Shown here in pieces: positions 20,661 through 54,059 of a stretch of 64,000 nt of DNA. The translations under genes were made by a program, and so were the position numbers. Below the pieces are notes generated by a model. The model saw only the letters and a list, made by a program, of their open reading frames with translations, was not told where the DNA came from and ran no database searches. Source of the stretch: Bacillota bacterium (GTDB lineage Bacteria > Bacillota > Sulfobacillia > JACIYH01); contig JBFLXJ010000033.1 in the NCBI GenBank assembly GCA_040757085.1, forward strand, positions 28,751-92,750, given 5' to 3'. Numbering within the stretch: the first letter of the stretch is position 1; each line of letters begins with the position of its first letter.

Positions 20661-22424
20661 TCAGGGGACGTGGGCGCGACCCCGGTAGACCAGGCCGCGG
20701 CGGGCGTCCACGGTGACCACCGCGCCGCTCTGGAGCTTGCGGGTGGCGTCCTCCGCCCCAATCACCGCCGGTAGGTCCATCTCCAGGGCGCAGATGGCGG
20801 CATGGGAGCTGAGACCGCCCTCCTCCACCACCAAACCGGCCGCCTGGCGCAGGAGAGGGACGTACCCGGCGTCGGTCGCGGGCACCACCAGCACGTCGCC
20901 GGGACGGAAGCGGTCCCGCACCTCTTCCAGTGAACGCCCCGCGCACACCCGGCCGGAACCGGCGCGGAATCCCACCCCCCGTCCCTGGAGCAGAATCTCC
21001 CCCACCGTGTGCACACGGAGGAGGTTGGTGGTACCCGGCACTCCCGCCGGAATGCCGGCGGTGATCACCACCAGGTCCCCCTGGGATATGTACCCGGCCG
21101 CCAGGCAGGTGGCTATGGCCTCGGAGAACATCTCCTCCGGGTCCGTGGTCTCGGAGGAAGGCAGGGGGTGAACGCCCCACACCAGGGTGAGACGCCGGCG
21201 CACCCGCTCGTGAGGGCTGAGCGCCAGTACGGGGCAGGCAGGCCGGTACTTGGCCACCATGCGGGCCGTGTACCCCGACTGGGTGGGGGTAATGATGGCG
21301 GCCGCCCCCAGGTCCCGGGCCGCCCGACAGCTGGCGTGGCTGATGGCGTCCGTCACTGCCTCCAGGGGCCCCCGCTCGCGGGCGGCCAGGATGCGGTCGT
21401 AGGGGAGCGCCTCCTCGGTACGGGCGGCGATGCGGGCCATGAACGCCACTGCCTCCACCGGGTGCTTGCCCAGGGCTGTTTCCGCCGAGAGCATCACCGC
21501 GTCGGTACCGTCCAGGATGGCGTTCGCTACGTCGGAAGCCTCGGCCCGGGTGGGAACTGGCCGCTCTACCATGGACTCCAGCATCTGGGTGGCGGTGATG
21601 ACCGGCTTGCCCAGCATGTTGCACCGGGTGATCAGCTCCTTCTGGACCAGGGGAACCTCTTCGGCCGGCATTTCCACCCCCAGGTCGCCCCGGGCCACCA
21701 TGAGTCCGTCGGAAACCTTCATGATGGCATCCAGATCCTCGAGAGCCTGCCGGGTCTCGATCTTGGCTACGATCTCCTGGTCCCCGCCCAGTTCCTCCAC
21801 CACCCGCCGCACCTCGACCACGTCGGCGGCGCGGCGCACGAAGGAACAGGCAAAAAAGTCCACTTGCTGGGCCACCCCCCAGGCGATGGCTTCCCGGTCG
21901 GCTTCGGAGACCGCGGGCAGATTGAGCAGGCCGCCGGGCACCACCACCTTCTTGCCCTGAGCCAGCACCCCTCCCCGCTCTACCCGGCAGCGCACCTCGT
22001 CTCCGCCGACCTCTTCCACCGTCAGGGCGATGTTGCCGTCGTCCAGAAGTAGTAGCTGCCCCGCGGAAACGTCGCCCGGAAATCCCGGGTAATTGACCAT
22101 CACCCTGTCCCTGTCTCCGGTGACGGCGGCGGTGACAAGACAGAAGCGCGCTCCTGTTTCGAGGAGCACTGAACCTCCTGCGATGGGACCCACCCGCACC
22201 TCCGGGCCGCGCAGGTCGACCAGGACGCCCACCGTGACTTTCTCTCCCCGGCACACCCGGCGCAGGGAATCCAGGCGGGCCTGGTGCTCGTCCAGGCGGC
22301 CGTGGGACATATTCAGGCGCGCCACGTTCATGCCGGCCCGCACCATGCCCCGGAGGACATCGGGATGGGAGGATGCCGGTCCCAGGGTGGCTACTATCTT
22401 GGTCCGCCGCCAGTTCCCGCTCAT
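20661..22424 (-). CDS. pyk: pyruvate kinase with a C-terminal PEP-utilising-enzyme mobile domain
   Basis: The N-terminus reads KIVATLGPAS...MNVARLNMSHG and the catalytic region MVARGDLGVE is present. The C-terminal ~100 aa (GGLSSHAAICALEMDLPAVIG) form a PEP-utiliser domain, as in Bacillus-type Pyk. Confidence 0.9.
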   Translation of the reverse strand: MSGNWRRTKIVATLGPASSHPDVLRGMVRAGMNVARLNMSHGRLDEHQARLDSLRRVCRGEKVTVGVLVDLRGPEVRVGPIAGGSVLLETGARFCLVTAAVTGDRDRVMVNYPGFPGDVSAGQLLLLDDGNIALTVEEVGGDEVRCRVERGGVLAQGKKVVVPGGLLNLPAVSEADREAIAWGVAQQVDFFACSFVRRAADVVEVRRVVEELGGDQEIVAKIETRQALEDLDAIMKVSDGLMVARGDLGVEMPAEEVPLVQKELITRCNMLGKPVITATQMLESMVERPVPTRAEASDVANAILDGTDAVMLSAETALGKHPVEAVAFMARIAARTEEALPYDRILAARERGPLEAVTDAISHASCRAARDLGAAAIITPTQSGYTARMVAKYRPACPVLALSPHERVRRRLTLVWGVHPLPSSETTDPEEMFSEAIATCLAAGYISQGDLVVITAGIPAGVPGTTNLLRVHTVGEILLQGRGVGFRAGSGRVCAGRSLEEVRDRFRPGDVLVVPATDAGYVPLLRQAAGLVVEEGGLSSHAAICALEMDLPAVIGAEDATRKLQSGAVVTVDARRGLVYRGRAHVP

Positions 22425-22547: not shown

Positions 22548-23507
22548 TCAGATAGCGAGGATGTGCGTGAGTTCCCACAGGCGGCGATCCAGGGGGCGTC
22601 GCTGGGAAAAAACGCGCGGGAGAGGGGTAAACCTCACTTCTCCGCCCTCGGTGCCGACCATCACCCCGCTCATCCCCTGCTGCAACGCCTGCACCGCTCC
22701 CGCCCCCAGGCGGCTGGCCAGGGCGCGGTCGTAAGCGGTGGGCGATCCCCCGCGCTGTATGTGCCCCAGCACCGTCACCCGCGTCTCCATGCCGGTGCGG
22801 GCCTGCACTTCCCGGGCCAGGTCGTAAGCGCTTCCGGCCCCTTCCGCCACCACGATCAGGTCGTGCTTCTTGCCCCGATTCCTGCCCCGCAGCACCCTGG
22901 CGCAGATGACCTCGATGGGCTCGGGGAACTCGGGGACCACCACCGACTCCGCCCCCGCTGCCAGTCCCACGGCCAGGGCCAGGTGGCCGGAGTCCCGGCC
23001 CATCACCTCGATGACGAATATGCGCTCGTGGGACGTGGCCGTGTCCCGGATGCGGTCGATGGCCCACACTGCCGTGTTCACGGCCGTGTCAAACCCTATG
23101 CAATGCTCGGTGAAGGGGATGTCGTCATCGATGGTGGCGGGCACCCCCACCACGGCCAGGCCCAGCTCATGGAGGGCCTGAGCACCCCGGAAGGAGCCGT
23201 CGCCCCCTATCACCACCAGCCCGTCAATCCCCGCCGCCCTCAAGTTGGCGACTGCTCGCTCCTGGGCAGCCCGTTCCTTGAATTCCTCGCAGCGGGCGGT
23301 GAACAGCACCGTTCCGCCCCGGTGCAGGATGCCTCCCACCGACCCCAGGGGGAGGGGCCGGAACCCACCGGCCAGCAAGCCGGCAAACCCATGCTCGATC
23401 CCCACAACTTCGGCGCCCTCCGCGACCGCCTGCCTGACCACCGCCCTTACGGCCGCATTCATTCCCGGGGCGTCACCGCCGCTCGTCAGAACCCCAAATC
23501 TACCCAC
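22548..23507 (-). CDS. pfkA: ATP-dependent 6-phosphofructokinase
   Basis: GVLTSGGDAPGMNAA, GGDGS and MGRDSGHLAL motifs are present. GTG start. Confidence 0.9.
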   Translation of the reverse strand: MGRFGVLTSGGDAPGMNAAVRAVVRQAVAEGAEVVGIEHGFAGLLAGGFRPLPLGSVGGILHRGGTVLFTARCEEFKERAAQERAVANLRAAGIDGLVVIGGDGSFRGAQALHELGLAVVGVPATIDDDIPFTEHCIGFDTAVNTAVWAIDRIRDTATSHERIFVIEVMGRDSGHLALAVGLAAGAESVVVPEFPEPIEVICARVLRGRNRGKKHDLIVVAEGAGSAYDLAREVQARTGMETRVTVLGHIQRGGSPTAYDRALASRLGAGAVQALQQGMSGVMVGTEGGEVRFTPLPRVFSQRRPLDRRLWELTHILAI

Positions 23508-28276: not shown

Positions 28277-29676
28277 CGGTCCGCCCCCTTTGCCAGGCGG
28301 TGCACCAGCTCTCTGAACACCGCCCCCCTCTCCTCGTAGTTGCGGAACAAACCGAAAGACGCGCACGCGGGCGAGAGCAACACGGTATCCCCGGGCCGGG
28401 CCAGGAAGCGGGCAAGCTCGACGGCCTCGGCCATGCCGGCCACCTCGTGCAGGCCCGGGCCGGGCAGGCCGGTCTCCGCAGCCGCCTGCTCCACGGCGAG
28501 CCTGATGCGCGGCGCCGTGGCCCCCAGCAATATAAGGTGGCGCACCTTCCCCAGCACCCCGCGGGCGAACCCGGCGAAGTCCAGTTTTTTGTCGTACCCT
28601 CCCGCGATCAGGATGAGGGGACCCGGCAGCGAGGCCAGGGCAGCCAGGGCCCGGTCGGGGGTGGTGGCGATGGAGTCGTTGACGTAGAGGACCCCGTCCA
28701 CCTCTGCCACCCGCTCCAGCCGGTGGGGAATCCCGGTGAAGCTACCCAGCACCTGGGCCATGGCGGCGCGCTGCCCCCCTACCAGCCCGGCCGCCGTCGC
28801 TGCCGCCAGGGCGTTGAGGAGGTTGTGTCGGCCCACCAGGCGCAGGGCCGCCACCGGGCACACGGGTGCCGCTTCTTCTCGGGGCAGGCGCAGAACCAGT
28901 TTCCGCCCCTCACCCTGCCCTTCCACCCATGCCCCCCGGGGGAAGGGACCCTGCTCACCAAAAAACAGGACTTTTCCCCTGGCGTCTTCGGCCTGACTCG
29001 CCACCACATCATCCTCGGCATTGAGGACCACATAATCCTGGGGGGTCTGATGCAGGAAAATCCTGCGCTTTGCCGCCACATACTCGTCCCACGAGGAGTG
29101 TACGTCCATGTGATCGGGGAACAGGTTGAGCAGCACCCCCACGTGCGGGCTGCGCTCGGTCAGTTCCAGTTGAAAAGAGGAAATCTCCAGCACCACCCGT
29201 GCGGAAGGGGGGATCTCGTGCACCCGGTCGATGAGGGGGGCTCCTATGTTCCCGCCCAGGTACACCCGGTAGCCGGATGCCTCCAGCATGCGGGCCACCA
29301 GGGTGGAGGTGGTGGTCTTGCCGGCGCTGCCGGTGATGCCCACCACGGGAGCGGGACACAGTTCCAGGAACAGGGGAATTTCCCCCGAAACCACGGCACC
29401 CCGCCGCCTGGCCTCCTCCACCTGGGGGAGGTGCTTGGGCATGCCGGGGGTGAGGAACACCACGTCGAACCCCTCGGAGAGGACGTCCAGGTACCCGGGA
29501 CCCAGTACGGTGCGCACGGGCCACTGCGCCACTTCCTGCAGGCGCTCGCCCAGTTCCCGGGCCGGCTTCTGGTCCAGGAGGGTCACCCGCGCCCCCTGGC
29601 GCACGAGAAAGCGCGCCAGGGCCAGGTTGGAAACCCCCAGCCCGACTACCGCCACCTTCTTACCCTCGAGGTGCAA
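28273..29676 (-). CDS. murD: UDP-N-acetylmuramoylalanine--D-glutamate ligase
   Basis: The N-terminus reads KKVAVVGLGVSNLALARFL. The Mur ligase P-loop GITGSAGKTTT is present. It lies outside any division and cell-wall cluster in this window. Confidence 0.85.
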   Translation of the reverse strand: MHLEGKKVAVVGLGVSNLALARFLVRQGARVTLLDQKPARELGERLQEVAQWPVRTVLGPGYLDVLSEGFDVVFLTPGMPKHLPQVEEARRRGAVVSGEIPLFLELCPAPVVGITGSAGKTTTSTLVARMLEASGYRVYLGGNIGAPLIDRVHEIPPSARVVLEISSFQLELTERSPHVGVLLNLFPDHMDVHSSWDEYVAAKRRIFLHQTPQDYVVLNAEDDVVASQAEDARGKVLFFGEQGPFPRGAWVEGQGEGRKLVLRLPREEAAPVCPVAALRLVGRHNLLNALAAATAAGLVGGQRAAMAQVLGSFTGIPHRLERVAEVDGVLYVNDSIATTPDRALAALASLPGPLILIAGGYDKKLDFAGFARGVLGKVRHLILLGATAPRIRLAVEQAAAETGLPGPGLHEVAGMAEAVELARFLARPGDTVLLSPACASFGLFRNYEERGAVFRELVHRLAKGADR

Positions 29677-29680
29677 TCGT

Positions 29681-31675
29681 TCACCCCCGGGTATAGCTTG
29701 CCTCGCTCAAAAGGCCCATCATGTCGGCCTTGAACGCCTGGTCGTAGCGTCCCCTGCGCAACGCTGTAACCAGCCGGGGGAGCGTCTCCTCGCCCCCCAG
29801 GTCGAGGGCGGGCCACGTGGCGAGAAACACGTCCCGCCCGTGCTTCCAGGCCGCCTTGAAGTACCGCAGACCTTGCCTGGCATCCCCGGCCCGCAGGGCA
29901 CATGCTCCCAGCAGGGTCAGCGCCACCGGGTGGGAGCGCTCGCGCGCCATTACCCGGCGGCACACGGCCTCACACGTAACCAGGTCTCCCTGGCGGAGGC
30001 ACACCTGTCCGTACAACATCTGGGCCACAATGTCCTCGGGAACCACCACCAGGTACCGCTCCCACGCCTCGCGAGCCTTGTCCGCCCTCCCCGTGCGCTG
30101 GTAGGCAAGGGCCAGGCGGCGCAGGTACCCCATATCCTCCGGGTCGAGACGGCAGGCGTCCTCCCACCAGCGCACCGCTTCTTCCCAGTCCCCGCGCCGG
30201 GCGTGCAGTTCCCCCAGGTCGCATGCCGTCCGGGGGTCGTTGCGGTCAAGGGCGTGGCCGCGTTCCAGGACTTCTCGGGCCTGTTCCAGCTCGCCCCGCT
30301 CCATGTGCCAGACCCCCAGCACCCGGTACACACCCGGGTCGGCGGGCTGCAGACGCCGTGCCCGTTCCGCATACTCACGGGCCAGGGCGAAGCTCCTCCC
30401 TCCGGTGTGCACCAGGGACGCTGCCAGCAGGATGGCCGGGTCGCTGGGGTAACGGCGCACCGCCGCATCGACCGTACGGGCGGCCAGTTCATAGATGGGG
30501 CAGTGAGCGTATGCCTCCAGCAGCAAATCGTGCAGCTGCTCGTCCAGGTCGGCAGGCAAGTCCAGGGCCAGCGCCTCCTCCAGTACCTCCCATGCCTCCT
30601 GCCAGCGGTGCAGGGAAGCATACAGGTCGGCCAGGAACACCCGCGCATATCCTTCCTGCTTGTCCTGACGACGGACCTCCTCCCAAAGGCGGGAAGCCCC
30701 GTAATAGTCACCCATGGCAGCGTTGGCCAGTCCCAGTTTCACCTTGGCTTCGGCATCGTCGGGATAGGCGAACAGGAGACGCTCCAGGTACCCGCGTGCC
30801 GCCTGGTAATCCTCCTGCTCGAGGGCCACGTTGGCCAGGGTGTGCAGGGAGGGACCGTAAGCATTCAGGCCGGAAACCGTCTTTTGCCACTCCCGCACGG
30901 CCTGTTCCACATCGCCGCTAAGGTAGTGCACCATCCCCAGCAGGTGGCGGGCCATGGGATACTGCGGATCGGCGAGCAGGGCCTGCCGGGCCATGAGGGA
31001 AGCCCGCCGCAGGTTGCCCAGGTGATACAGGTACAGTTCCCCCAGACGGCAGTACGCCTCCGCGCAAGAGGGATCGGCCTCCACCGCCTGACGGAGGCAA
31101 CTGACCGCCTGGGAGTATCTACCCTGCTGCATCTCCACCATGGCCGCTCCCACCATGGCGGAGGCGTTGCGCGGTTGCACGGACATGGCCCGCTGGAAAT
31201 GCTCGGCTGCCAGTTCGAGCCTGCCCAGTTGCAGGTACACGCGTCCCAGGAGGTCATGGGCCTCGGCGTCCTCGTTGCCCGTGGCGATGACGCGGTTGAG
31301 GGCTTCGGCCGCCTGGTCATAACGGCGGAAGCGGGCATATATGCGCCCCAGCAACTTCAGGCTTTCAGGGTCGGCGTTCCCCCTCAGGAGCGGGCGAAGG
31401 GGATCGATCACGGCCGCCATCCGCTGCTCCGTCCACTCCCGCCCCAGTGCCCCTCCCACCATCCAGTCTTCGCAGGAATCCAGGAGGACCTCTGCCAGTT
31501 GACGACGGATCTCCGGGTTGTGGGGATCTTCGTCCATAGCCTGGTAAAGGGCTCGGGCCGCGTAACGATGGTTACCGCGTGCCAGATGACCTGCCGCCCG
31601 GGATAGGAGGCGAGCTACCCTCCTCTTATTCGTCTCGCCTTTGCTTGCTGCCCGGGCGCTTTCCTTCTTGTCCAA
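29681..31675 (-). CDS. tetratricopeptide-repeat protein
   Basis: TPR-like 34-aa A/L/Y/G/R-rich repeats run throughout. TTG start. Confidence 0.65.
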   Translation of the reverse strand: MDKKESARAASKGETNKRRVARLLSRAAGHLARGNHRYAARALYQAMDEDPHNPEIRRQLAEVLLDSCEDWMVGGALGREWTEQRMAAVIDPLRPLLRGNADPESLKLLGRIYARFRRYDQAAEALNRVIATGNEDAEAHDLLGRVYLQLGRLELAAEHFQRAMSVQPRNASAMVGAAMVEMQQGRYSQAVSCLRQAVEADPSCAEAYCRLGELYLYHLGNLRRASLMARQALLADPQYPMARHLLGMVHYLSGDVEQAVREWQKTVSGLNAYGPSLHTLANVALEQEDYQAARGYLERLLFAYPDDAEAKVKLGLANAAMGDYYGASRLWEEVRRQDKQEGYARVFLADLYASLHRWQEAWEVLEEALALDLPADLDEQLHDLLLEAYAHCPIYELAARTVDAAVRRYPSDPAILLAASLVHTGGRSFALAREYAERARRLQPADPGVYRVLGVWHMERGELEQAREVLERGHALDRNDPRTACDLGELHARRGDWEEAVRWWEDACRLDPEDMGYLRRLALAYQRTGRADKAREAWERYLVVVPEDIVAQMLYGQVCLRQGDLVTCEAVCRRVMARERSHPVALTLLGACALRAGDARQGLRYFKAAWKHGRDVFLATWPALDLGGEETLPRLVTALRRGRYDQAFKADMMGLLSEASYTRG

Positions 31676-40063: not shown

Positions 40064-41497
40064 CTACCGCCGGGAGACCAGGGCCGGGTCCACGTAACCT
40101 ACCGTACCGCTTTGCCCCACCAGCAACAGGCCCTCCTGGCCCGTATCCTCGGGGTCAAAGAAGTACACGGACCGAAGGGGGTCCCCCAGTTCGGGAAAGC
40201 TCAGCCGCCGCACCCTGTAGACACCCGGGCGGAACCAGGCAGCCATCCCCCGTGAAGGGGTCCATTCCACGACCGCCACGTCGTTCCCCTCCGGGTGCAC
40301 GCCCGCCAGGGTACCCGCGGCGGAAGCCACCGCCGTCCCGGGCCGGAAGATGGGTGCCGGCAGCCGCCGCCAGCGCAACTGGCCGTCCCGCCCCTCCCCC
40401 AGATAGGACACCTCTTGCTGCCCCGCTCGCACCGCCAGATACACGGTGAGGCCCCTGTCACCCCGGCACGCCGCCAGGTCCAGCACGTCGGGATGCTCGG
40501 GCGCCAGGTAGGGCCGCCCACCCACCCCCTCGAAACTCAGGCTTCCCTGCTGCCAGGCAAGCAACCACACCTGAACCTCGTAACCGCCCCTCTGCCGCAG
40601 GGCGCCTGCGGCGAGCAGGGTCGTCACCGTGCCACCCCCCGGTACCGGGCACAGGCGGTGCACCTGGGCGGGCAAGCTGAGGGCAGCCGGGTCCCCGTTC
40701 AGCCGCAAGCCCCCCTGGGAATCCACCCACAGGGCCACGGGAGTCTCTTTCCCAGGCAGCAGTACCAGACTGCCCGCCCGGCCGGCGGCGGGCAGCAGGT
40801 TCTCCCCGCCCACGAGCGAACCTCCCACGTAGCGCCACACCCTGCCCGTGGCCGTCACCACCACGGCCTGTCCGGATACCTCGCCCGCATAGGTCAGGGG
40901 TTCGGAAAAGCGGACCTCTTCCATTTCCGGCACTGCGGTCAGGCCCGCCGGCTCCGCCGTCCCCCGCGCCCAGACGGTGTTCCCGTCCTCCTTCGCCAGT
41001 GCGGACCGTGCCTGGGCAGCCGCCGGCGTGCCCAGCACGCGAAGCAGGCGCACGCGGGCAGGCGCTGTTTTGGCGTAGTAACTTGCCTGGGCCTTCCCTT
41101 CCGGCGCCGGGGCCAACCCGGCGCGACCTGCAACAGCCTCATCGCGCACGGACGGTACAGGAGCACGGGCGGTCAGGACCAAGCCTCCCTGGCCCCCGGG
41201 ATCCTCCACCACCGGTGGCACCTGGGCCCGCAGGTCGACCACCACACCCCCCAGCATGACCAGGATTGCGGCTGCAACCGCCGCCACCCGGAGGGCGCGT
41301 ACCACCCGGCGTCGCCCCTCGCGGGCCACAATGGCCGGCACCTGAGCCAGCACGCGGCGCCGCATGGTAACATCGAAAACCAGGTCCGGGGGCACCAGCC
41401 CGTCGGCCCATACCCGCATGTGCTCAAGGAGTTCCTCGCACGAACCCGAGCAGGGGCTCTCAATCTTCCTGAATTCCTGGCCCCGCTCCCCCATCAT
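40064..41497 (-). CDS. anti-sigma factor with a zf-HC2-like N-terminus and a large (~350 aa) extracytoplasmic domain
   Basis: An ATG at 41497 overlaps the sigma stop as ATGA. The N-terminus MMGERGQEFRKIESPCSGSCEELLEH has the H/C signature. One TM segment, ALRVAAVAAAILVMLGGVVV, is present. Confidence 0.55.
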   Translation of the reverse strand: MMGERGQEFRKIESPCSGSCEELLEHMRVWADGLVPPDLVFDVTMRRRVLAQVPAIVAREGRRRVVRALRVAAVAAAILVMLGGVVVDLRAQVPPVVEDPGGQGGLVLTARAPVPSVRDEAVAGRAGLAPAPEGKAQASYYAKTAPARVRLLRVLGTPAAAQARSALAKEDGNTVWARGTAEPAGLTAVPEMEEVRFSEPLTYAGEVSGQAVVVTATGRVWRYVGGSLVGGENLLPAAGRAGSLVLLPGKETPVALWVDSQGGLRLNGDPAALSLPAQVHRLCPVPGGGTVTTLLAAGALRQRGGYEVQVWLLAWQQGSLSFEGVGGRPYLAPEHPDVLDLAACRGDRGLTVYLAVRAGQQEVSYLGEGRDGQLRWRRLPAPIFRPGTAVASAAGTLAGVHPEGNDVAVVEWTPSRGMAAWFRPGVYRVRRLSFPELGDPLRSVYFFDPEDTGQEGLLLVGQSGTVGYVDPALVSRR

Positions 41498-42066
41498 GAG
41501 GTCCAGCCCTCTTTCTCCAGCAGGGTCTTGAGCATCAACCTGGCCCGGTGCAACCGGGATCGTATCGTGGCGGGAACTACCCCCATGGCCCGGGCGATCT
41601 CCACGGTGTCGTAGCCACTCCAGTAGTGCAACATGACCACGTCCCTGTATACGGGCGGCAACCTTCTCACCATGGCAAGCATCCGCTGCTGCTGCACCCG
41701 GCGCCATCCCCCCTCCCCGTCCTCTCCCACGGCAGGAAGGGGATCTGCCAGCAGCATGGTCCGGCCGGCCGTCCGCCGCCGGTCACGACACAGGTTGAGA
41801 CAAATGCGACCCAGCCAGGCCCCCAATTGACATTCTCCCCTGAACTGACCCCCCTTCGCCAGGGCCCGCAGGAACGTTTCCTGGGCCACGTCTTCCGCCT
41901 CGTGACGGTCTCCCAGAGTAAGGTACGCCAGGCGCAGGATATAGTCGCCGTACCGCTGCATAGCCTGCTCCACTGCCCGGGCGGGATCACACCGGTACAC
42001 CCTCAGCCATTCCGCCGCCTCGGGCACCATCTTCCCGCCCGCTCCCGGCGCGCCGTTCCTACTCAT
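41494..42066 (-). CDS. ECF-type RNA polymerase sigma factor
   Basis: Region 2 reads DVAQETFLRALAK. Region 4 reads TVEIARAMGVVPATIRSRLHRARLML. The ATG at 42030 may be the true start if the predicted ECF promoter at 42070-42096 is real. Confidence 0.75.
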   Translation of the reverse strand: MSRNGAPGAGGKMVPEAAEWLRVYRCDPARAVEQAMQRYGDYILRLAYLTLGDRHEAEDVAQETFLRALAKGGQFRGECQLGAWLGRICLNLCRDRRRTAGRTMLLADPLPAVGEDGEGGWRRVQQQRMLAMVRRLPPVYRDVVMLHYWSGYDTVEIARAMGVVPATIRSRLHRARLMLKTLLEKEGWTS

Positions 42067-43913: not shown

Positions 43914-46900
43914 TTAGCCGCAACGGGAGAAACCGCAGAAATGGCAGACCAGGCACCCGCTTTCGTGAGTGAGGTGGCCACCGCACTCGGGGCAGGCACC
44001 CATGTGGTTGTCGACGGGATCGAGACTCACTGCCATCTGATCCCAGGAATGCTGGCCGACACTGCCGGGGTTGGGAGAAATGCTCTCCCGGGCCGTATTC
44101 TCTCGGGCCGCAGCCTTCCGTTTCAGATAGCGCTCCAGCACAATGCCGATGGCGTCCGGGCAGGAAAGCACCATTCCACCGCCTTCCACCCAGGCAGGCG
44201 ACGGGCAGCGGATGCCCCGCAATTCCTTCACGACAGACTCCGGCCGGACTCCCGAACGCAACGCCAGCGATATGAGCCGGGCCACCGCCTCGGACTGGGA
44301 TGACGCACAGCCGCCCGACTTGCCCATGGAGGCGAACACCTCGCACAGGCCGTACTCGTCCTCATTGATGGTCACGTACAGGTTCCCGCAGCCCGTCCTT
44401 ATGCGCTCGGTGCTGCCGTGGGTGACCGATGGCCTGGCCCTTGGCGTAATCCCTCCCCGGCCCCCCGCAGGCGCCGCCGCAAGCCGGGGCTCTGCCGCGC
44501 CTTCCCGCACCACCGGGCCGACGGCCGGGCGCTCTTCCGCGCTCTCTCCCCCGGCTCGCACGGGCTCCTCGGGCGCCACACGCACCTGGCCCGGAACACC
44601 GCCCGAAACAGCCTGAGAGCGCCCGAGTTCCGCCTGCCGCGGCAGCTCCCCGGGCGGCTCCTCTCCCTTCCGCACCGTGCCCACGTTCAGCACCTGCTCC
44701 TCCCGACTCCGGTCACGATATATGGTCACGCCCTTGCACCCCAGTTCGTACGCCAGGAAGTAAACCTTCGCCACGTCCTCGCGCGTGGCCTCGTTGCACA
44801 TATTCACCGTCTTGGAGACGGCATTGTCCGTGTGCGTCTGAAAAGCGGCCTGCATGCGGATGTGCCATTCGGGATCGATCTGCAGGGCGGTGACGAACAC
44901 CCGCTGCCACCGCTCGGGGACGCCGGGTAGCCCCCGGACCGAGCCGCGCTCCGCCACCAGCCGCATCAGCTCCGGGCTGTAAAACCCCTCTCTCCTGGCC
45001 ACTTCCTCGAAGATCGGGTTGACTTCGACCAGTTGCTGGCCTTCCAAAACCTTGCGGAAGAAGGCCAGGGCGAACAGGGGCTCGATACCGGAAGAGCAAC
45101 CCGCGATGATGCTGATGGTGCCCGTGGGTGCAATAGTGGTGAGGGTGGCGTTCCGCACGGGAGGACCGTCCCGGAACACGCTGTGGGAGAAATTTGGAAA
45201 CGCCCCCCGTTCCCGTGCCAGCTGGCGAGTTGCCTCCCGTGCCTCGCGGTGGATGAACCCCATCACCTCGTCAGCCAGGCGCAGTGCCTCGGAGGAATCG
45301 TAGGGGATCCCCAGCTTGATGAGCATGTCCGCCCAGCCCATCACGCCCAGGCCGATCTTGCGGTTGCCCCGGGCCATCTTTTCGATTTCGGGCAGGGGGT
45401 ATTTGTTTGCGTCTATGATGTTATCCAGAAAACGGACGCCCAGACGGGTAATCCGGGAAAGCTCATCCCAATCTATCGCCTCCCTGGCGTAGGCCAGCAG
45501 TTCCTCGCCCCTCAAATCCCAAACCCGCAGTTTTTCCCATGACTCCGCGCCCGGCCTCACCGCAAGCGAAAGGTTGATGGACCCCAGGCAGCACGCCTCG
45601 TACGGGAGCAGAGGTTGCTCCCCGCAGTTGTGGGCACATATCCCGTTGGCGTCAAAGGCGTTGACGCCGGGGACCCGCACGTCGTAGACCTCCTCGACAC
45701 CGTCCTCCTTGACCGCCAGGACGGTGGCCACGAACCGCTCGCGGTTCAACGTGCGCCGGCAGGCACGGAGGAGCAATGCGAGCTTCCGCGCCTTGACGCT
45801 ATCGCCAAAGCCAATCCGTTCCGCAAACACGGCCACGTTATCGCCGCTGATGACTAACTCGTGCCGGGTCGTGCCCCTGTACTCTCTGGCCCGTCCTTTG
45901 CCATCCGGCATCAGCCGGGCAGCAGGCGGCCGCCGCTCCTCATGGATGGTGCTCACCATGCCCAGCCTGAGCAGCATGCGCTGGACCAAACGCAAAAGAT
46001 CAAGGCTGCTCTGGGACAGGCGGATGCTCACGCCCTTTTCCTGGCTCCCCTGGACCGAGCCGGCGCAGTCAAAGAGGCCGCGCAGGAAGCCCCGGTAGCC
46101 CTCTGACGAAGCGCGTTCGATCTCCGGGGAAACCGCCTTGGCGCCCGGACGCATCCCCATCCGCCCCGCCAGCACCTCCAAAGCAGCCGAATTGAGGCGG
46201 AAGTCCCCGCAACCGGTGAGCGGTACCCACCCGGTGAAGTCCATGCGGTGCGGCACTGCCTCCGCGCACCCCAGCGCAAGCCGCATGGCCGCGGACGCTC
46301 CCCCATGCGCGGGCGGGCCGTCGACCGCTTCCCACACCGCTCCCCCTCCTGCCGCCACGCCGCCAGACGCTTCCTCCCCGGAGCACACAGCCAGGACAGC
46401 TGCATTTTTCTTGAGCACTCCGTCGCCGGCCAGCAGGCCGAGCAGATAACCCTCACCCTCGCTCAACTCTCCGGTCCAGCCGGGAAGCGACCGATGGTCG
46501 TGCAGGACGATCCGGTCGCCGGGCTTGAGTTCCCCCGCCCTGACCCACTCGCAGCCAATACGGTAGCGCGCACGGTCGACCAAGCGCAGGACCCGATGGT
46601 CGGCGGTGAGCCGGACGCTGTACCCCTCCCGGGTGGATAGCCTCACGACCGGCCTGGTCGCTGTCCTGAAAAAGCCCTCTTTCCCGGTCTTGTAGCACAC
46701 GCCGTTGATAACTGCTTCGAAAGGCCGGCCCACCAGTTCCCGCACCTGGCGCGGGCCTTCACCCGTCATCACCCAGGTATCACCGGTGACACAGGGGTTG
46801 GTGCTCTCGATCTCGCCCAGTTCGGGGGTGGGGTTGTCCCGGTTCAGGCGATCCAGAAAGACGATGCCCGGCTCCCCGTTCCGCCACGCCCCCTCCACGA

Positions 46901-47810
46901 TACGGTCGAAAACATCGCGCGCCCGCAGGCGACCCACTGCCTCCCCGGTACGGGGGTTGACCAGGTCGTACTCACGGTCTTCCCGCACCGCACGCATGAA
47001 CTCTTCCGTAATCCCCACCGAGATGTTGAAGTTGGTGATGTCGGCGTTGTCCTGCTTGCAGGTGATGAACTCCATAATGTCGGGGTGATCCACCCGCAAG
47101 ATACCCATATTCGCTCCGCGACGCGTGCCCCCTTGCTTTATGGCTTCGGTGGCGGCGTTGAATACCCGCATGAAGGACACCGGCCCGGAGGCAACGCCAC
47201 CGGTGGTACGCACCACGTCGTTCTTGGGGCGAAGCCGCGAGAAGCTCATGCCCGTGCCGCCCCCCGATTGGTGGATGAGGGCAGCATGTTTGATACTTTC
47301 AAAAATCCCCACCAGGGAGTCGTCCACGGGCAGGACGAAGCAGGCCGACAACTGGCTCAGTTCCCGCCCCGCATTCATCAGGGTGGGCGAGTTGAACATG
47401 AACCTCTTCTCCGTCATGGCGTCGTACAGCCGATCCTGGAAAGAGCGGATGCCGGCACTTTCTCGCTCCATCACCCTGGCCAGTTCGTCAAAAGGCACCC
47501 TCATGTGCCCGTGCCTGTCCAGCCATATGTAGGCGCGCTGCAACATCTCCCAATCCCAGCGGGTCAGTCCCTCCAGTACTCCCAGCCGCTCCGGCCACCC
47601 CGCCGGCGGAGTCCCCGGTTCGCCATGGGGAGTCTGACCTCCCTCGGGATCATATACCTCAACCAGATACAGACCTTCCACCAGTGCGATGTTCCGTGCT
47701 ACCCGCCGGAACAACTGCTCCGGAGTCTCCACCACCTTCCCGCTGGCATCCTTGGCCAGGTACCGCTTCCGCAACACCACCAGGCCGTTCTCACTCAACT
47801 GCAGTTCTGC
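43914..47810 (-). CDS. nrdJ: adenosylcobalamin-dependent (class II) ribonucleoside-diphosphate reductase, interrupted by an intein and carrying a C-terminal zinc-finger tail
   Basis: The N-terminus reads ENGLVVLRKRYLAKD. The catalytic region is FNSPTLMNAGRELSQLSACFVLPV. The catalytic loop STNP/CGEQPLLPYEACCLGSINLS is split by ~389 aa. The C-terminus has CPECGG...CLVCHFCGFSRCG. I prefer the GTG at 47810, 5 nt after GGGAGGGGAG. Confidence 0.85.
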   Translation of the reverse strand, partial: AELQLSENGLVVLRKRYLAKDASGKVVETPEQLFRRVARNIALVEGLYLVEVYDPEGGQTPHGEPGTPPAGWPERLGVLEGLTRWDWEMLQRAYIWLDRHGHMRVPFDELARVMERESAGIRSFQDRLYDAMTEKRFMFNSPTLMNAGRELSQLSACFVLPVDDSLVGIFESIKHAALIHQSGGGTGMSFSRLRPKNDVVRTTGGVASGPVSFMRVFNAATEAIKQGGTRRGANMGILRVDHPDIMEFITCKQDNADITNFNISVGITEEFMRAVREDREYDLVNPRTGEAVGRLRARDVFDRIVEGAWRNGEPGIVFLDRLNRDNPTPELGEIESTNPCVTGDTWVMTGEGPRQVRELVGRPFEAVINGVCYKTGKEGFFRTATRPVVRLSTREGYSVRLTADHRVLRLVDRARYRIGCEWVRAGELKPGDRIVLHDHRSLPGWTGELSEGEGYLLGLLAGDGVLKKNAAVLAVCSGEEASGGVAAGGGAVWEAVDGPPAHGGASAAMRLALGCAEAVPHRMDFTGWVPLTGCGDFRLNSAALEVLAGRMGMRPGAKAVSPEIERASSEGYRGFLRGLFDCAGSVQGSQEKGVSIRLSQSSLDLLRLVQRMLLRLGMVSTIHEERRPPAARLMPDGKGRAREYRGTTRHELVISGDNVAVFAERIGFGDSVKARKLALLLRACRRTLNRERFVATVLAVKEDGVEEVYDVRVPGVNAFDANGICAHNCGEQPLLPYEACCLGSINLSLAVRPGAESWEKLRVWDLRGEELLAYAREAIDWDELSRITRLGVRFLDNIIDANKYPLPEIEKMARGNRKIGLGVMGWADMLIKLGIPYDSSEALRLADEVMGFIHREAREATRQLARERGAFPNFSHSVFRDGPPVRNATLTTIAPTGTISIIAGCSSGIEPLFALAFFRKVLEGQQLVEVNPIFEEVARREGFYSPELMRLVAERGSVRGLPGVPERWQRVFVTALQIDPEWHIRMQAAFQTHTDNAVSKTVNMCNEATREDVAKVYFLAYELGCKGVTIYRDRSREEQVLNVGTVRKGEEPPGELPRQAELGRSQAVSGGVPGQVRVAPEEPVRAGGESAEERPAVGPVVREGAAEPRLAAAPAGGRGGITPRARPSVTHGSTERIRTGCGNLYVTINEDEYGLCEVFASMGKSGGCASSQSEAVARLISLALRSGVRPESVVKELRGIRCPSPAWVEGGGMVLSCPDAIGIVLERYLKRKAAARENTARESISPNPGSVGQHSWDQMAVSLDPVDNHMGACPECGGHLTHESGCLVCHFCGFSRCG
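45627..46793 (-). mobile_element. intein (~389 aa) with a LAGLIDADG homing-endonuclease domain, inserted at the catalytic cysteine codon of nrdJ
   Basis: The insert starts with CVTGDTWV and contains LTADHRV (a TxxH-like block). Two LAGLIDADG-like blocks are present, LLGLLAGDGVL and GFLRGLFDCAGSV. It ends VYDVRVPGVNAFDANGICAHN, directly before a Cys. The flanks rejoin as the canonical STNPCGEQPLL. Confidence 0.8.
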
Positions 47811-47875
47811 CACTTCATCTCCCCTCCCCGTCCGGGCCCAACTCGCCTGCCTCATCCACCCCCTTCTTCCGCACC

Positions 47876-48487
47876 CTACCCCCCGCCCGCGCCACGCCCG
47901 CAATCGCCACTGCCGGGCCCCCCGCCGTGCGCGCTGGCCCCGCTGCCGCCGCCCCCACTCCCGCCGCCGCTGCCGTGGACCCCGCTGCCGTGGCTCCCGC
48001 TGCCCCCAAGACCGGGCGCTTCCTGTCCGCACTCGCGCTCCCGCAGCAGGCGCTGCACCTCCTCGGCAAACCGCCTAAGGTCGGCAAACTGCCGGTACAC
48101 GGAGGCAAAACGCACATAGGCCACCTCGTCCAGCTCCCGCAGGTGCTCCATCACCATCTCGCCGATGACCCTTGACTCCACCTCCCGCTCCCCCCGGGAG
48201 CGTAATTCCTTCTCGATATCCTGGACCACCGCATGCAGGCGCTCCGAAGGCACCGGGCGCTTCTCACACGCCTTCAGCAAACCGGCCAGGATTTTGCCGG
48301 AGTCGAAGCGTTCCCGGCGTCCATCCTTCTTGACCACCACCAGGGGGGGCTCGTCCACCTTCTCGTAAGTCGTGAAGCGGCGGTGGCAATCCTCACACTC
48401 CCGCCGCCTCCGGATGACGGTCCCGTCCTCGGTGGGGCGAGAGTCCAGAACCCTGCTCTCGGGAAACCCGCAGTACGGACACTTCAC
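47876..48487 (-). CDS. nrdR: transcriptional repressor NrdR with a ~50-aa Gly/Ser-rich C-terminal tail
   Basis: A GTG at 48487 gives the canonical N-terminus MKCPYCG...SRVLDSR (zinc ribbon) followed by an ATP-cone. The tail reads [36 protein letters not shown]. Confidence 0.8.
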
Positions 48488-50104: not shown

Positions 50105-50878
50105 TCAGCCGGCAGGCGGCACCGCGGACAGGCAAACCGGGAGGGGCTCGGCCAGCACGATTTCCTTCCGGGAGACGCGGCATTTTCCCGCCAGGACCAG
50201 GACGCCGCGACCAGCAGCATCGACCAGGGCAGCAGCAAAGGCGGGATCTGTATCGCGGTTGGGGGCAAAGCAGCATGCATCGGCGCGCTGAACCACAAAT
50301 ACCACTGCCGCCGCCGGTGCCAACCGGGCCAGTCCCTCCAGGTGACGCCTGCCCCGTACAGTCGGTGCATCCGGGAATAAGGCCACGCCGTGCCGCACCA
50401 GCGTCACCGACTTGCACTCGATCATCCAGCCGCCCACCGCCAGGTCGAACCGTCCCCGGCCCCAGGTGGGTTCCCTGACCAGCCTCCCCCACCCGGACGC
50501 GCCCAGCGCCTCCGCCACCAGCAGGGGAGGCAGGCGGGCGTCCACGCAAACCAGTCCTCCCCTGGACTCAACCAGGAGGAGGTCCGCCGCAGTTCGCCTA
50601 CCTCCACTTTCAGGCGGGGTATCCTGCCAAGCACCTGCAGGCGGCCACGCCTCAGCCCGAACGGAGCCCGCTACCGCCCGGCGCCCAATGCCTGCCGCTG
50701 CATGCAGCCAGCCCGGTGGAGCCAGCCAGACCCGGGCACCGGAGACGAGCAATTCGAGCAGCCGTCCGCTGTTGGGGACGTGCACCGGTATGATCCCATG
50801 GCCTGCGCTGACCCGGGCGGAAAACCGCGAAGTACGTTCGATAAACTGGCCGGGCAAAAGGTGGGGAGGAAGTTTCAT
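50105..50878 (-). CDS. sfsA: sugar fermentation stimulation protein A homologue
   Basis: FIERTSRFSARV at the N-terminus and the internal ECKSVTL...FPDAPTVRG are typical of SfsA. Confidence 0.7.
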   Translation of the reverse strand: MKLPPHLLPGQFIERTSRFSARVSAGHGIIPVHVPNSGRLLELLVSGARVWLAPPGWLHAAAGIGRRAVAGSVRAEAWPPAGAWQDTPPESGGRRTAADLLLVESRGGLVCVDARLPPLLVAEALGASGWGRLVREPTWGRGRFDLAVGGWMIECKSVTLVRHGVALFPDAPTVRGRRHLEGLARLAPAAAVVFVVQRADACCFAPNRDTDPAFAAALVDAAGRGVLVLAGKCRVSRKEIVLAEPLPVCLSAVPPAG

Positions 50879-51447: not shown

Positions 51448-51620
51448 GGGCAGACCTCCTTTCCGATGCGGAATGGGAGCCGCCGGAGCCCAGGCGCACC
51501 ACAGGCAAAATCGGCACCCGGAGCAGGACTGCGGTGTCAGAGGGGCGAAGTCCCAAGCATGCATATCGCCCCCGGGTCCGCACGTGAGCGCCTGCCGCGG
51601 GGGAAATGGAGGTGGCGCCG

Positions 51621-54059
51621 ATGCGACTGGTGCTGGGCGTCGACGCGGGGGCTACCAAGACCCTGGCGGTGGTGGCTGACCTGGCCGGCCAGGTCAGGGG
51701 CTGGGGCCGGGCAGGATGCGGGAACTTTCAGGTAACCGGGACCCGGGCACCCCGCGAGATAAGCCGGGCCATCCGCCGGGCCTTGGCCATGGCCGGTGCG
51801 GGGCCTTCCCACGTAGTCGCCGCCTACTACGGCATAGCAGGGGCGGACCGGCCAGCCGACTTTGCCTATATCCATTCTTTCCTGGAACCCATCAACCCTG
51901 CCCCGCGCTGGGAAGTGGAGAACGATGCCACCATCGCCCTCGTTGCCGCCACCCGGCGCCGCCTGGGCGTGGTGGTGGCATGCGGGACCGGATTCAACTG
52001 CCTGGCATTCCACCCCGGCGGGACCCGCCTGCAGGTGGGGGGACTGGGTTACATCTTCGGCGACTTCGCGGGGGCAGGCCAGATCGGCGCCGAAGTGATC
52101 CGGGCAGCCACCCGGGCATACGACGGGCGGGGCCCGGCCACCGCCCTGCTCGATCTCCTCAGGCAGCAAATTGACCTGGACGACCCCTCCGACCTGGCAC
52201 CCATGATGTACGGGGCAGCAACCCGCTCCTTGCACCCGGGGGAACTGGCTCCCCTGGCCTTCCGGGCCGCCGCCGCAGGCGATCCGGTGGCGCACGAGAT
52301 CCTGCACCGCACGGCCGAGGAGATGGCCCTGGCCACAAAGGTTGCCATCGAGCGGGCAAGACTCCACACCCTCCCCAGCGTGCCGGTAGTCCTGGCCGGG
52401 GCACTGCTGCAGGGCGAACCGGGCCGGTTGCTGGTCCCCATTATGACCGGTATGATCACTAGCGCCTGTCCCCAGGCGGAGATCCACGTCCTGCAGACGG
52501 AACCCGCGCTGGGTGCGGTGATAGCGGCGCTGGAACTGGCCGGAGTACAGGTTGACGACTCCCTCTCCCGGACGCTGCAGTCCACCTGGGCGAGCCGCAC
52601 ACGGTCCCGCGCCGGCGCAAACGGGACTGCAGATGGCCCCCAGCCGCTGCCGGGGACGAACGGCAGCGCGGAGGCCCGCACCCTGGATGGGCCGAGGGCG
52701 GAGCGAGGCCTCAAGGTGGCGGTGGTAGGCGGGGGGAGCACATACACTCCCGAACTGGTATCAGGACTGGTGGAAGCCAGGGACGCCTTCCCCCTGCGCG
52801 AGCTTGCCCTCATGGACCCCGATTATGCACGGTTGGAGGCGGTGGGAGGACTGGCGGGGCGCATGCTTGAGGACGCCGGCCTGGGAAATGCCCTCCGTCT
52901 TGTCAGCACCCTCGAGGAAGCCCTGTCAGGTGCAGACTTCGTAATCGTGCAGGTGCGGGTCGGGGGGATGACAGCCCGGATGCTGGACGAGCGCCTCCCG
53001 CTGGAACTCGGCTGCATCGGGCAGGAGACGGTGGGAGCGGGCGGGATCTCCTGTGCCCTGCGTACCGTCCCGGTGATCCTGAACATCGCCCGCCAGGTGG
53101 AGCGGCTCTGTCCCGCGGCATGGCTCATCAACTTCACCAATCCCTCCGGGCTGATCACCGAGGCCCTGTACCGCCACGCCGACGTACGGGCGGTGGGCCT
53201 GTGCAACGTCCCCATCACCATGACGAAGGCCCTGGCCGGCACCGCAGGCGTGGATGCGACAGGCCAGCAGGCGCCCCCTGAAGGCAGAGACGGGGAAAGC
53301 CTGCAGGTCGACCAGCCAGGAGTAGATGCAGGAAGGCTGCACGTGGACTACCGGGGCCTGAATCACCTGGGGTGGTTCGTGGGGGTCCGGGACGGCCACG
53401 GCCGGGACCTCATGCCGATCATTCTGTCCCGCTACCTGGAACAGGTGGCAGAACACACCAGGGTGGACTCCGACCTGATCACCGCCTGGAGAGCCATACC
53501 CAACCCCTATCTGCGTTACTATTGCCACCCTGACCGTGTGCTGGCCGAGATGAAGGCGTCCGCTCGCACCCGGGCAGAGGAGGTCATCGACCTGGAAAGG
53601 CACCTCCTGGAGATATACAGGAATCCCGCCGTCCGCCAACGCCCTCCCGAGCTGGACAGGCGGGGAGGCGCTTTCTATGCCCTCGCCGCAGTGGAACTGA
53701 TGCTGTCTCTGGCCGGGATACGGCCGGGGGAGCACGTGGTCTCCGTACCGCATGAAGGAAGGATGTCCGACCTCCCCCCCGATGCGGTGGCCGAACTGAC
53801 CTGCCACGTGGACCGCGACCAGATCACCCCGGCGGTGGAAGGGGGCCTGCCGCCGGGCACAGCCGGACTGGTACGCACGGTCAAGGAGTGCGAATTACTG
53901 GCCATAGAAGCCGCAGTCAAGGGATCCCGCCCCCTCGCCTACCTCGCCCTCGCTTCCCACCCCCTGGTCCCCTCCGCCCAGGTAGCCCGGCAACTCCTCG
54001 ATCGCCTCCTGGCCGCCCACGCCGCATACCTGCCACCCGGCCTGCAGCCACGCCGCTAG
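51621..54059 (+). CDS. fusion protein: N-terminal BadF/BadG/BcrA/BcrD-type ATPase (N-acetylglucosamine-kinase-like) and C-terminal family 4 glycoside hydrolase
   Basis: The N-terminus LVLGVDAGATKTLAVV is an ASKHA-fold ATPase. After a low-complexity linker, KVAVVGGGSTYTPELV is the GH4 NAD-binding N-terminus, and CNVPITM...GLNHLGW follows. The ATG at 51621 sits 7 nt after GGAGGTGG. No stop separates the two domains. Confidence 0.7.
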   Translation: MRLVLGVDAGATKTLAVVADLAGQVRGWGRAGCGNFQVTGTRAPREISRAIRRALAMAGAGPSHVVAAYYGIAGADRPADFAYIHSFLEPINPAPRWEVENDATIALVAATRRRLGVVVACGTGFNCLAFHPGGTRLQVGGLGYIFGDFAGAGQIGAEVIRAATRAYDGRGPATALLDLLRQQIDLDDPSDLAPMMYGAATRSLHPGELAPLAFRAAAAGDPVAHEILHRTAEEMALATKVAIERARLHTLPSVPVVLAGALLQGEPGRLLVPIMTGMITSACPQAEIHVLQTEPALGAVIAALELAGVQVDDSLSRTLQSTWASRTRSRAGANGTADGPQPLPGTNGSAEARTLDGPRAERGLKVAVVGGGSTYTPELVSGLVEARDAFPLRELALMDPDYARLEAVGGLAGRMLEDAGLGNALRLVSTLEEALSGADFVIVQVRVGGMTARMLDERLPLELGCIGQETVGAGGISCALRTVPVILNIARQVERLCPAAWLINFTNPSGLITEALYRHADVRAVGLCNVPITMTKALAGTAGVDATGQQAPPEGRDGESLQVDQPGVDAGRLHVDYRGLNHLGWFVGVRDGHGRDLMPIILSRYLEQVAEHTRVDSDLITAWRAIPNPYLRYYCHPDRVLAEMKASARTRAEEVIDLERHLLEIYRNPAVRQRPPELDRRGGAFYALAAVELMLSLAGIRPGEHVVSVPHEGRMSDLPPDAVAELTCHVDRDQITPAVEGGLPPGTAGLVRTVKECELLAIEAAVKGSRPLAYLALASHPLVPSAQVARQLLDRLLAAHAAYLPPGLQPRR

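Follow-up and report, generated by a model that had tools for sequence, protein, structure and literature searches.

A BadF-type sugar kinase fused to a family 4 glycoside hydrolase in Bacillota: a probable phosphorylate-then-cleave enzyme

Introduction

The BglT-type enzymes of glycoside hydrolase family 4 (GH4) are mechanistically famous. BglT is strictly dependent on 6-phospho-beta-glucosides, and how such substrates are supplied in organisms without a sugar phosphotransferase system (PTS) has not been pinned down. The question is raised again by one gene in a 64,000-nucleotide stretch of a Bacillota genome (assembly GCA_040757085.1, contig JBFLXJ010000033.1, positions 28,751 to 92,750 of the forward strand; hereafter the window), in which a kinase-like ATPase of the BadF type and a GH4 glycosidase are encoded in a single reading frame. 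Is this fusion real, what are its two halves equipped to do, and in which order would they act? We found that the fusion is real and lineage-restricted and that it joins two known families, with a pathway logic of known kind. We propose that the product is probably a bifunctional enzyme in which the kinase acts first, so that a glycoside is phosphorylated and then cleaved independently of a PTS. The fusion provides Rosetta-stone evidence for a BadF-type kinase as the missing partner of GH4 enzymes.

Results and Discussion

One reading frame encodes both domains

The open reading frame (ORF) at 51606-54059 on the forward strand is unbroken in the window. Two in-frame start codons stand near its 5' end, ATG 51606 and ATG 51621. 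The latter is favoured because a Shine-Dalgarno sequence GGAGG (51608..51612, +), read directly from the sequence, stands 8 nt 5' of it; NCBI uses the same start. Counted from here, the gene (51621..54059, +) has 812 codons followed by a stop codon at 54057-54059, and at its 3' end it shares 4 nt with the convergent AFOR gene. With the methionine at 51621 numbered as residue 1, the 812-aa product has three parts, the kinase (residues 1-324), a linker (residues 325-363) and the GH4 enzyme (residues 364-812). A first-pass annotation, made from the letters alone, had described a single ORF, with this same start, fusing a BadF-type ATPase to a GH4 enzyme, had found no stop between the halves and had quoted the linker sequence and the GH4 start KVAVVGGGSTYTPEL; all of these statements hold. 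Pfam searches revealed matches to BcrAD_BadFG (E = 4.5e-30), Glyco_hydro_4 (E = 4.6e-54) and Glyco_hydro_4C (E = 6.5e-43), all above the gathering scores, confirming the identities given to the two domains. Neither a stop codon nor a frameshift is present in the linker, where the GC content of third codon positions stays at about 0.8 throughout and the two other frames are stop-rich.

Could two neighbouring genes nevertheless have been merged into the single ORF by an error of sequencing or assembly? Such merging does occur among relatives of these proteins. Four fusions of the reverse order, GH4 followed by kinase (P0007, P0009, P0013 and P0016), were rejected as frameshift artefacts, their junctions being garbled, and the 90%-identity clusters of P0013 and P0016 hold separate GH4 (423 aa) and kinase (326 aa) proteins. 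Three of the four come from ENA assemblies with other split or merged genes, and all still record the adjacency of the two genes. For the window gene, an artefact is effectively refuted. The same 812-aa protein, 100% identical, is found in three independent assemblies, namely the NCBI metagenome-assembled genome (MAG) and the Logan assemblies SRR32167787 and SRR29635773. The same fusion was also found elsewhere. The cluster P0004 has nine members, all of 803-815 aa and 72-76% identical to the window protein (four NCBI MAGs and five Logan assemblies), P0002 and P0003 are full-length fusions as well, and full-length orthologues in this range of identity come from at least 12 further assemblies. 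In the partial P0006 (52-58% identity), the C-terminus of the kinase, a short linker and the start of GH4 share one frame, and the partial P0005 likewise keeps the junction. Indels in the linker are in frame, the junction is clean and the domain ends are complete on either side.

When the window gene is set against the orthologous gene of L001, the ratio of nonsynonymous to synonymous substitution rates (dN/dS) is 0.245 in the kinase half and 0.20 in the GH4 half, and it reaches 1.16 in the linker. The AlphaFold2 model of the fusion has a mean predicted local distance difference test score (pLDDT) of 91 and a predicted template modelling score of 0.79, with disorder confined to residues 332-356 and 546-570, and the alignments revealed that both domains keep every catalytic residue. 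As the orthologues are full-length, both halves are under purifying selection and the model is ordered outside the linker and one loop, the fusion is genuine and is kept by selection. Apart from these proteins, an apparent 791-aa fusion of GH4 with a SIS domain (P0043; L004, 8001-10376), whose neighbours are a GntR regulator, a BadF kinase and a permease-polysaccharide-deacetylase gene, comes from an indel-prone assembly series and was not used as evidence.

The GH4 half is a complete predicted 6-phospho-beta-glucosidase

The GH4 half consists of an N-terminal NAD-binding domain (52710..53240, +; residues 364-540; PF02056, 183.2 bits against a cut-off of 23.2) and a C-terminal domain (53352..53969, +; residues 578-783; PF11975, 147.6 bits against 24.1). 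The former carries the GGGS motif, R453, E469-T470, N507 and C528-N529 of the CNVP motif, and the latter H582, a metal ligand, Y630 and R651. The NAD-binding GxGS motif of the Rossmann fold is present as VVGGGSTYTPEL from residue 368, the corresponding G11, G12 and S14 of Escherichia coli ChbF (CelF, chb operon; reference sequence from MG1655) being invariant columns of the alignment. The -1 subsite of ChbF is formed by R96, E112, T113, N150, C172, N173, H203, Y258 and R282 (PMC13197890). All nine are invariant in the alignment and correspond to R453, E469, T470, N507, C528, N529, H582, Y630 and R651 of the fusion, so that the metal-ligand cysteine and histidine and the catalytic tyrosine are found in C528, H582 and Y630 (ChbF C172, H203 and Y258). 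Conservation of all nine residues, including the arginine pair R96/R282, indicates that this half is shaped to take a gluco-configured sugar bearing a 6-phosphate.

The closest solved relatives are Geobacillus Gan4C/1S6Y (5c3m, E = 1.6e-96) and Thermotoga maritima BglT (E about 1e-61), followed by 6-phospho-alpha-glucosidases. Foldseek gave the same ranking, with TM values of 0.93-0.94 to Gan4C (5c3m) and BglT (1up7) and 0.84-0.88 to the alpha enzymes. None of the curated GH4 equivalogs was passed; the best NCBIfam model, PRK15076, a subfamily model that bears the name alpha-galactosidase, scored 186.9 bits against a cut-off of 486. Judged by its residues, the GH4 half is a complete predicted 6-phospho-beta-glucosidase. 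It resembles ChbF in the CN(I/V)P motif and the shared -1 residues at about 39% identity, but the substrate of ChbF arrives from the chitobiose PTS and needs the deacetylase ChbG, whereas the fusion has its own kinase. No PTS or ChbG gene was found near the fusion gene in the window.

The kinase half is a BadF-type sugar kinase with an altered sugar site

The N-terminal half (51621..52592, +; residues 1-324) is a BadF/NagK-type sugar-kinase domain of the ASKHA fold (PF01869, 105.5 bits against a cut-off of 31.5). It contains the phosphate-1 motif D8-x-G10-x-T12-K13-T14 (51636-51662, +), the catalytic N101-D102 (51918-51941, +), the phosphate-2 motif G122-T123-G124 with N126 (51978-51998, +) and G260 of the adenosine motif (52386-52409, +). 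D8, G10, T14, N101-D102, G122-T123-G124-x-N126, D148 and G260 are invariant or nearly so in the subfamily alignments. Sequence searches of the PDB matched Clostridium acetobutylicum MurK (8zo3), Sulfolobus tokodaii hexokinase (2e2n) and NagK-type kinases. The model of this half, with pLDDT mostly above 90, superposes on MurK 8zo3 with a Foldseek TM of 0.91, and the values across MurK, NagK and hexokinase range from 0.85 to 0.91.

In Tannerella forsythia MurK, the catalytic aspartate clamps O4 and O6 of the sugar, an asparagine binds O4 and D141 binds the anomeric O1 (PMC10465942). In the alignment these residues correspond to D102, N126 and D148 of the fusion, and the spacing from the asparagine to the aspartate is 22 residues in both proteins. 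The difference lies next to D148. The motif G140-GLGYIFG-D148-F149-AGAG (52038..52079, +) stands where GGWGxxxGDEGS is expected; the fusion kinase reads GGLGYIFGDFAGAG where MurK reads GGWGHIIGDEGSG, with F149 in place of the canonical glutamate. Thus the fusion shares with MurK (C. acetobutylicum 8ZO3 and T. forsythia), human NagK and S. tokodaii hexokinase the ASKHA fold, DxGxT, GTGxN and the catalytic and O1-binding aspartates, but those proteins are monosaccharide kinases, whereas the fusion and its GH4-linked relatives lack the GGWG/GDEGS residues. The NCBIfam equivalog NagK_SO3507 scored only 95.2 bits against a cut-off of 370. As the canonical motif is absent and the NagK equivalog is far below its cut-off, the fusion kinase is not a canonical N-acetylglucosamine (GlcNAc) or N-acetylmuramic acid (MurNAc) kinase. 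The earlier label "GlcNAc-kinase-like" needs refining in this respect. BglK of Klebsiella pneumoniae belongs to the ROK family, and a search of the fusion protein for PF00480 (ROK) gave no match at E <= 0.01.

The Pfam family name and the NCBI product name, "BadF/BadG/BcrA/BcrD ATPase family protein", would also permit an electron-transfer activase of the BcrA/BadF/HgdC type, or a non-catalytic regulatory ATPase, in place of a sugar kinase. We regard this as very improbable. None of the invariant columns of the kinase subfamily alignment holds a cysteine, and the four cysteines of the window domain are not conserved; a conserved ligand pair for a [4Fe-4S] cluster is therefore missing, which argues against an iron-sulfur activase of the BcrA/HgdC type. 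In addition, the catalytic aspartate (N-D-A), GTGxN and the O1-binding aspartate are all kept, and the closest matches in both sequence and structure are MurK, hexokinase and NagK.

A rare fusion of a common gene pair

An exhaustive phmmer search covered 1.84 billion representatives clustered at 50% identity. Of its 150 best matches, only P0004 (full-length) and P0006 (partial) are kinase-GH4 fusions of the window type, and the remaining matches are separate GH4 proteins or separate kinases of about 330 aa. A search with the kinase alone returned 72 stand-alone kinases and no additional fusion. The fusion was seen in one lineage of Bacillota MAGs only. The first-pass view that a covalent fusion of this kind is unusual agrees with this outcome, the top matches containing just two such 50%-identity clusters, of which one is full-length and the other partial.

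The two families had also been said to be frequent neighbours, and this proved right. Scanning one genome per GTDB species with the kinase-subfamily alignment gave at least 80 loci, the window's own lineage not being among those listed. A GH4 gene is directly adjacent to the kinase in 30 of the 80 loci listed, including all 21 top-ranked ones, and in none of the 30 are the two fused. The order is kinase-GH4 in 23 of them (Paenibacillus, Cohnella, Bacillota MAGs and a few others) and GH4-kinase in seven (Chloroflexota, Armatimonadota, Microbacterium and one Bacillota MAG). Adjacency recurs, in both gene orders, in Bacillota, Chloroflexota, Armatimonadota, Actinomycetota, Thermotogota and other lineages. 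Unfused pairs typically overlap by up to 16 nt or are separated by up to 40 bp, and such short or overlapping spacing implies translational coupling. The other members of the cassettes vary and comprise AraC or LacI regulators, SBP_bac_1 with permeases, Peripla_BP_4 and Opp-type ATP-binding cassette (ABC) systems; PTS genes were absent from the flanking genes sampled around the cassettes.

The unfused arrangement also suggests how the fusion may have arisen. In L010, a 41%-identical kinase is followed, after a gap of 38 bp, by a separate GH4 gene in the same order as in the window. The linker of P0006 is 13 aa (39 nt) long and so has the size of such a spacer, which makes loss of the kinase stop codon the simplest origin. 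On this evidence the fusion would have arisen from a kinase-GH4 gene pair by stop-codon loss and read-through of the spacer, and the linker would then have lengthened to 38-60 aa in the clade of the window.

The same domain order was met with another kinase. In P0183, represented by four independent contigs, a PfkB-family kinase is fused N-terminally to a GH4 enzyme with a CDQN motif, and together with the BadF-type fusion this indicates that kinase-GH4 coupling arose with two unrelated kinase folds. This metagenomic protein is like the window protein in having a sugar kinase N-terminal to GH4, and unlike it in its ribokinase-like fold, in CDQN instead of CNVP and in having a GlmA-like glucosaminidase nearby. 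In L095 (4221-6953; also in L096 and L097), the operon that encodes the 910-aa PfkB-GH4 fusion also codes for a ROK regulator, a GlmA-like GH35/42 protein and an Opp-type ABC transporter.

The BglT locus of Thermotoga ties the fusion to a CHARACTERISED enzyme. Most of the T. maritima BglT sequence was rebuilt from the PDB alignment, and the locus was viewed in Thermotoga sp. Mc24 (GCA_000784835.1; L099, 8045-10248), where the last 16 nt of a BadF-family gene, whose product has 323 aa, overlap the start of bglT. Its product aligns over its full length with the window kinase domain at 30% identity (E = 3e-40), and its sugar-site motif reads GGLSFSLGERLGS, again without the canonical GGWG/GDEGS. 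The Thermotoga pair (TM1281-type GH4; PDB 1UP4/1UP6/1UP7) and the window gene thus share both families, the kinase-GH4 order, a GH4 fold matching at a TM of 0.94 and a solitary position in a neighbourhood unrelated to sugars; they differ in that the former is two polypeptides and the latter one, at an identity of about 30-33%. A literature search found no paper describing a BadF-family partner of Thermotoga BglT, and nothing relevant on a BadF-GH4 fusion or pair, on a kinase-dependent GH4 pathway or on TM1280/TM1281. The "BglT" of PMC5507952 and PMC4746261 was set aside, since these proteins are transporters and not the GH4 enzyme.

The sugar site of the kinase follows its linkage to GH4

Two alignment columns, the glutamate of GDEGS and the tryptophan of GGWG, were read across the 80 kinase loci listed. 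In kinases linked to GH4, the glutamate is kept in 0 of 30 and the tryptophan in 1 of 30, whereas in those linked to nagA/nagB the glutamate is kept in 14 of 14 and the tryptophan in 13 of 14. The glutamate of GH4-linked kinases is mostly replaced by Phe, Trp or Tyr. The possibility that nagB-linked kinases share the non-canonical motif, which would have pointed to glucosamine, was rejected, as these have the canonical GGWG/GDEGS. Phe149 of the fusion adjoins the O1-binding aspartate, at the place towards which a beta-glycoside would be expected to direct its aglycone, and this position is consistent with a kinase that accepts glycosides rather than free sugars.

The signature thus separates GH4-linked kinases from true GlcNAc kinases. 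On this basis we tentatively suggest, with somewhat less assurance than we attach to the order of the two steps in the fusion, that the BadF-type kinases adjacent or fused to GH4 form an unrecognised subfamily of glycoside (disaccharide) 6-kinases marked by the loss of GGWG/GDEGS. With GH4 they may constitute a self-contained, PTS-independent phosphorylate-then-cleave module distributed from Thermotoga to Paenibacillus, whose fused form may pass the intermediate directly between the two sites.

It may also be asked whether the two halves do unrelated jobs and were joined by neutral loss of a stop codon between neighbours, the kinase serving, for example, in the recycling of cell-wall amino sugars and the GH4 enzyme acting on PTS-derived beta-glucosides. 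The housekeeping region around the gene, which has no sugar operon, agrees with this, as does L091, where a 48%-identical kinase stands alone, without GH4, in a partly syntenic region. We nevertheless find it improbable. Adjacency of the pair recurs across lineages, in either order and with the stop codon of one gene overlapping the start codon of the next, the sugar site of the kinase co-varies with GH4 linkage, and the fusion persists in relatives as distant as about 52% identity, with purifying selection acting on each half.

In two further loci (L008, 8001-12178; L093, 8001-12261), tandem BadF-family kinase genes are followed by nagA and nagB, with a GHL10 (PF02638) gene upstream. The first kinase of L008 carries GDxAGA, which is non-canonical, and the second carries the canonical GDEGS, a difference in motif that suggests action on different amino-sugar substrates.

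Proposed catalytic route and substrate

Based on the two active sites and the cassettes, we propose the following route. A beta-linked, gluco-configured glycoside (cellobiose-like, aryl-beta-glucoside-like or containing glucosamine) would enter the cell unphosphorylated, for example via an ABC transporter. The N-terminal kinase would use ATP to phosphorylate the non-reducing sugar at O6. Cleavage of the 6-phospho-glycoside by the tethered GH4 enzyme would follow, through NAD+/Mn2+-dependent oxidation-elimination, giving hexose-6-phosphate and the aglycone. In this way both the cassette and its fused version would be a PTS-independent supply to the phospho-glycosidase. We infer the order of the steps, with the kinase first and acting on the glycoside, as well as the nature of the substrate; channelling between the tethered sites is possible. 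The order is supported by the changed residue beside the O1-binding aspartate of GH4-linked kinases and by the ABC components flanking the cassettes.

The chemistry of GH4 narrows the substrate. The first-pass annotation had considered a phospho-sugar of the MurNAc, GlcNAc or cellobiose type. GH4 chemistry opens by oxidising the free 3-OH of the sugar, where MurNAc has a lactyl ether, and MurNAc-6-phosphate is therefore unlikely at the -1 subsite. GlcNAc-6-phosphate is doubtful there, since E. coli ChbF is reported as inactive on GlcNAc6P-GlcNAc in the passage of PMC13197890 that cites Walter et al. 2021. A sugar of the glucose-6-phosphate or glucosamine-6-phosphate type, from a cellobiose-like or chitosan-dimer-like compound, is plausible.

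A route of this kind has a precedent in two separate enzymes. In the passage of PMC8660893 that cites Thompson et al. 2002, BglK of K. pneumoniae is described as an ATP-dependent kinase that phosphorylates O6 of intact beta-glucosides, which a 6-phospho-beta-glucosidase then cleaves. The likeness to the fusion, which has no PF00480 domain, is a functional analogy only.

Several observations weigh against the kinase acting first on a glycoside. The closest stand-alone relatives of the kinase (P0153, P0235 and P0232, 45-48% identity) are not linked to GH4 and lie in a nagA/nagB cluster or are solitary. The closest solved or characterised homologues, MurK, hexokinase and NagK, are all monosaccharide kinases, and the literature searched holds no characterised BadF-type partner of any GH4 enzyme. 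No transporter gene is adjacent to the fusion gene within the window. In addition, the putative role of Phe149 as a platform for the aglycone is read from the spacing of the motifs.

The main alternative is the reverse order of events, in which GH4 would cleave a 6-phospho-disaccharide made elsewhere, by a PTS or another kinase, and the fused kinase would phosphorylate the freed glucose, glucosamine or GlcNAc, so that both halves of the sugar reach glycolysis or amino-sugar catabolism. The monosaccharide 6-kinases among the nearest homologues speak for it, as do the nearest stand-alone relatives, which lie beside nagA/nagB and a second, canonical kinase. The chitobiose route of E. coli is a model of this order, as ChbF frees GlcNAc that then needs phosphorylation (PMC13197890). 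On the other side, the unfused cassettes go with ABC transporters and not with PTS genes in the flanks sampled, and the monosaccharide-kinase motif is lost specifically in the GH4-linked kinases, which would be unexpected for simple phosphorylation of glucose or GlcNAc. Thermotoga, which has the cassette, is not known to have a PTS, and this would leave no source for the 6-phosphate that the conserved arginine pair requires. This order is compatible with the kinase also acting first, and as an account of the fusion we consider it rather unlikely, although clearly less so than unrelated functions of the two halves.

Phosphorylation before cleavage remains the reading that we prefer. The cassette is widespread and unstudied, and its genes are now annotated only as "N-acetylglucosamine kinase-like ATPase" and "6-phospho-beta-glucosidase". 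If the proposal is true, many annotations would be corrected and a PTS-independent beta-glycoside route would be added to metabolic reconstructions. The fusion itself would be a single-polypeptide, probably thermostable catalyst converting a beta-glycoside and ATP to hexose-6-phosphate and an aglycone.

The linker and a disordered insertion in GH4

The low-complexity linker (52593..52709, +; residues 325-363), about 38-39 aa long in the window protein, has a disordered core at residues 332-356 (52614-52688) with pLDDT below 50. It evolves neutrally, an in-frame indel of four codons distinguishes it from the linker of the L001 orthologue, and its length differs among orthologues with the frame always preserved. 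The linker therefore behaves as a flexible tether. A second low-complexity segment, specific to the clade and about 30 aa long, is inserted in GH4 between CNVP and GLNH (53235..53336, +; residues 539-572). It is disordered, with pLDDT below 50 for residues 546-570, and evolves neutrally (dN/dS 0.83). The insertion is missing from 5c3m, ChbF and P0006, and its length varies in P0002-P0004. A partial direct protein repeat within it (GVDA...GVDA, read as AGVDA ... PGVDAGR) suggests that the insertion grew by local duplication.

Genomic neighbourhood

The fusion gene is solitary in a housekeeping region, both in the window and in its orthologues, with NrdR, an intein-bearing ribonucleotide reductase (RNR), SfsA, a flavin reductase and AFOR close by and PolA, DnaE, Pfk and Pyk farther away. 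The divergent arrangement with the flavin reductase and sfsA had been read correctly. The further idea that sfsA is a sugar-related functional neighbour is not supported, as no tie of the gene to sfsA or the flavin reductase was found beyond conserved synteny.

Some of these neighbours have features of their own. The RNR large subunit (43914-48032, -) is 1372 aa as the longest ORF (1299 aa as called on L005) and contains an intein with a LAGLIDADG endonuclease domain; its orthologue in L001 (914 aa) is intein-free, and the homologue in L091 has two inteins. In the SfsA ORF (50105-50878, -; 257 aa), a low-complexity stretch of about 65 aa separates the SfsA_N and SfsA domains, and the gene calls at the identical locus in L005 and the orthologous one in L001 are fragments of about 145 aa only. 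The stretch may be an insertion, or the gene may be decaying. Two ORFs of 772 aa (29288-31606, +) and 547 aa (40064-41707, -) have a coding-like third-position GC content and gave no Pfam match at E <= 1e-5. The pyruvate kinase (20661-22424, -) carries a C-terminal PEP-utilizers mobile domain and adjoins the phosphofructokinase (22548-23507), the two having the look of an ordinary glycolytic pair.

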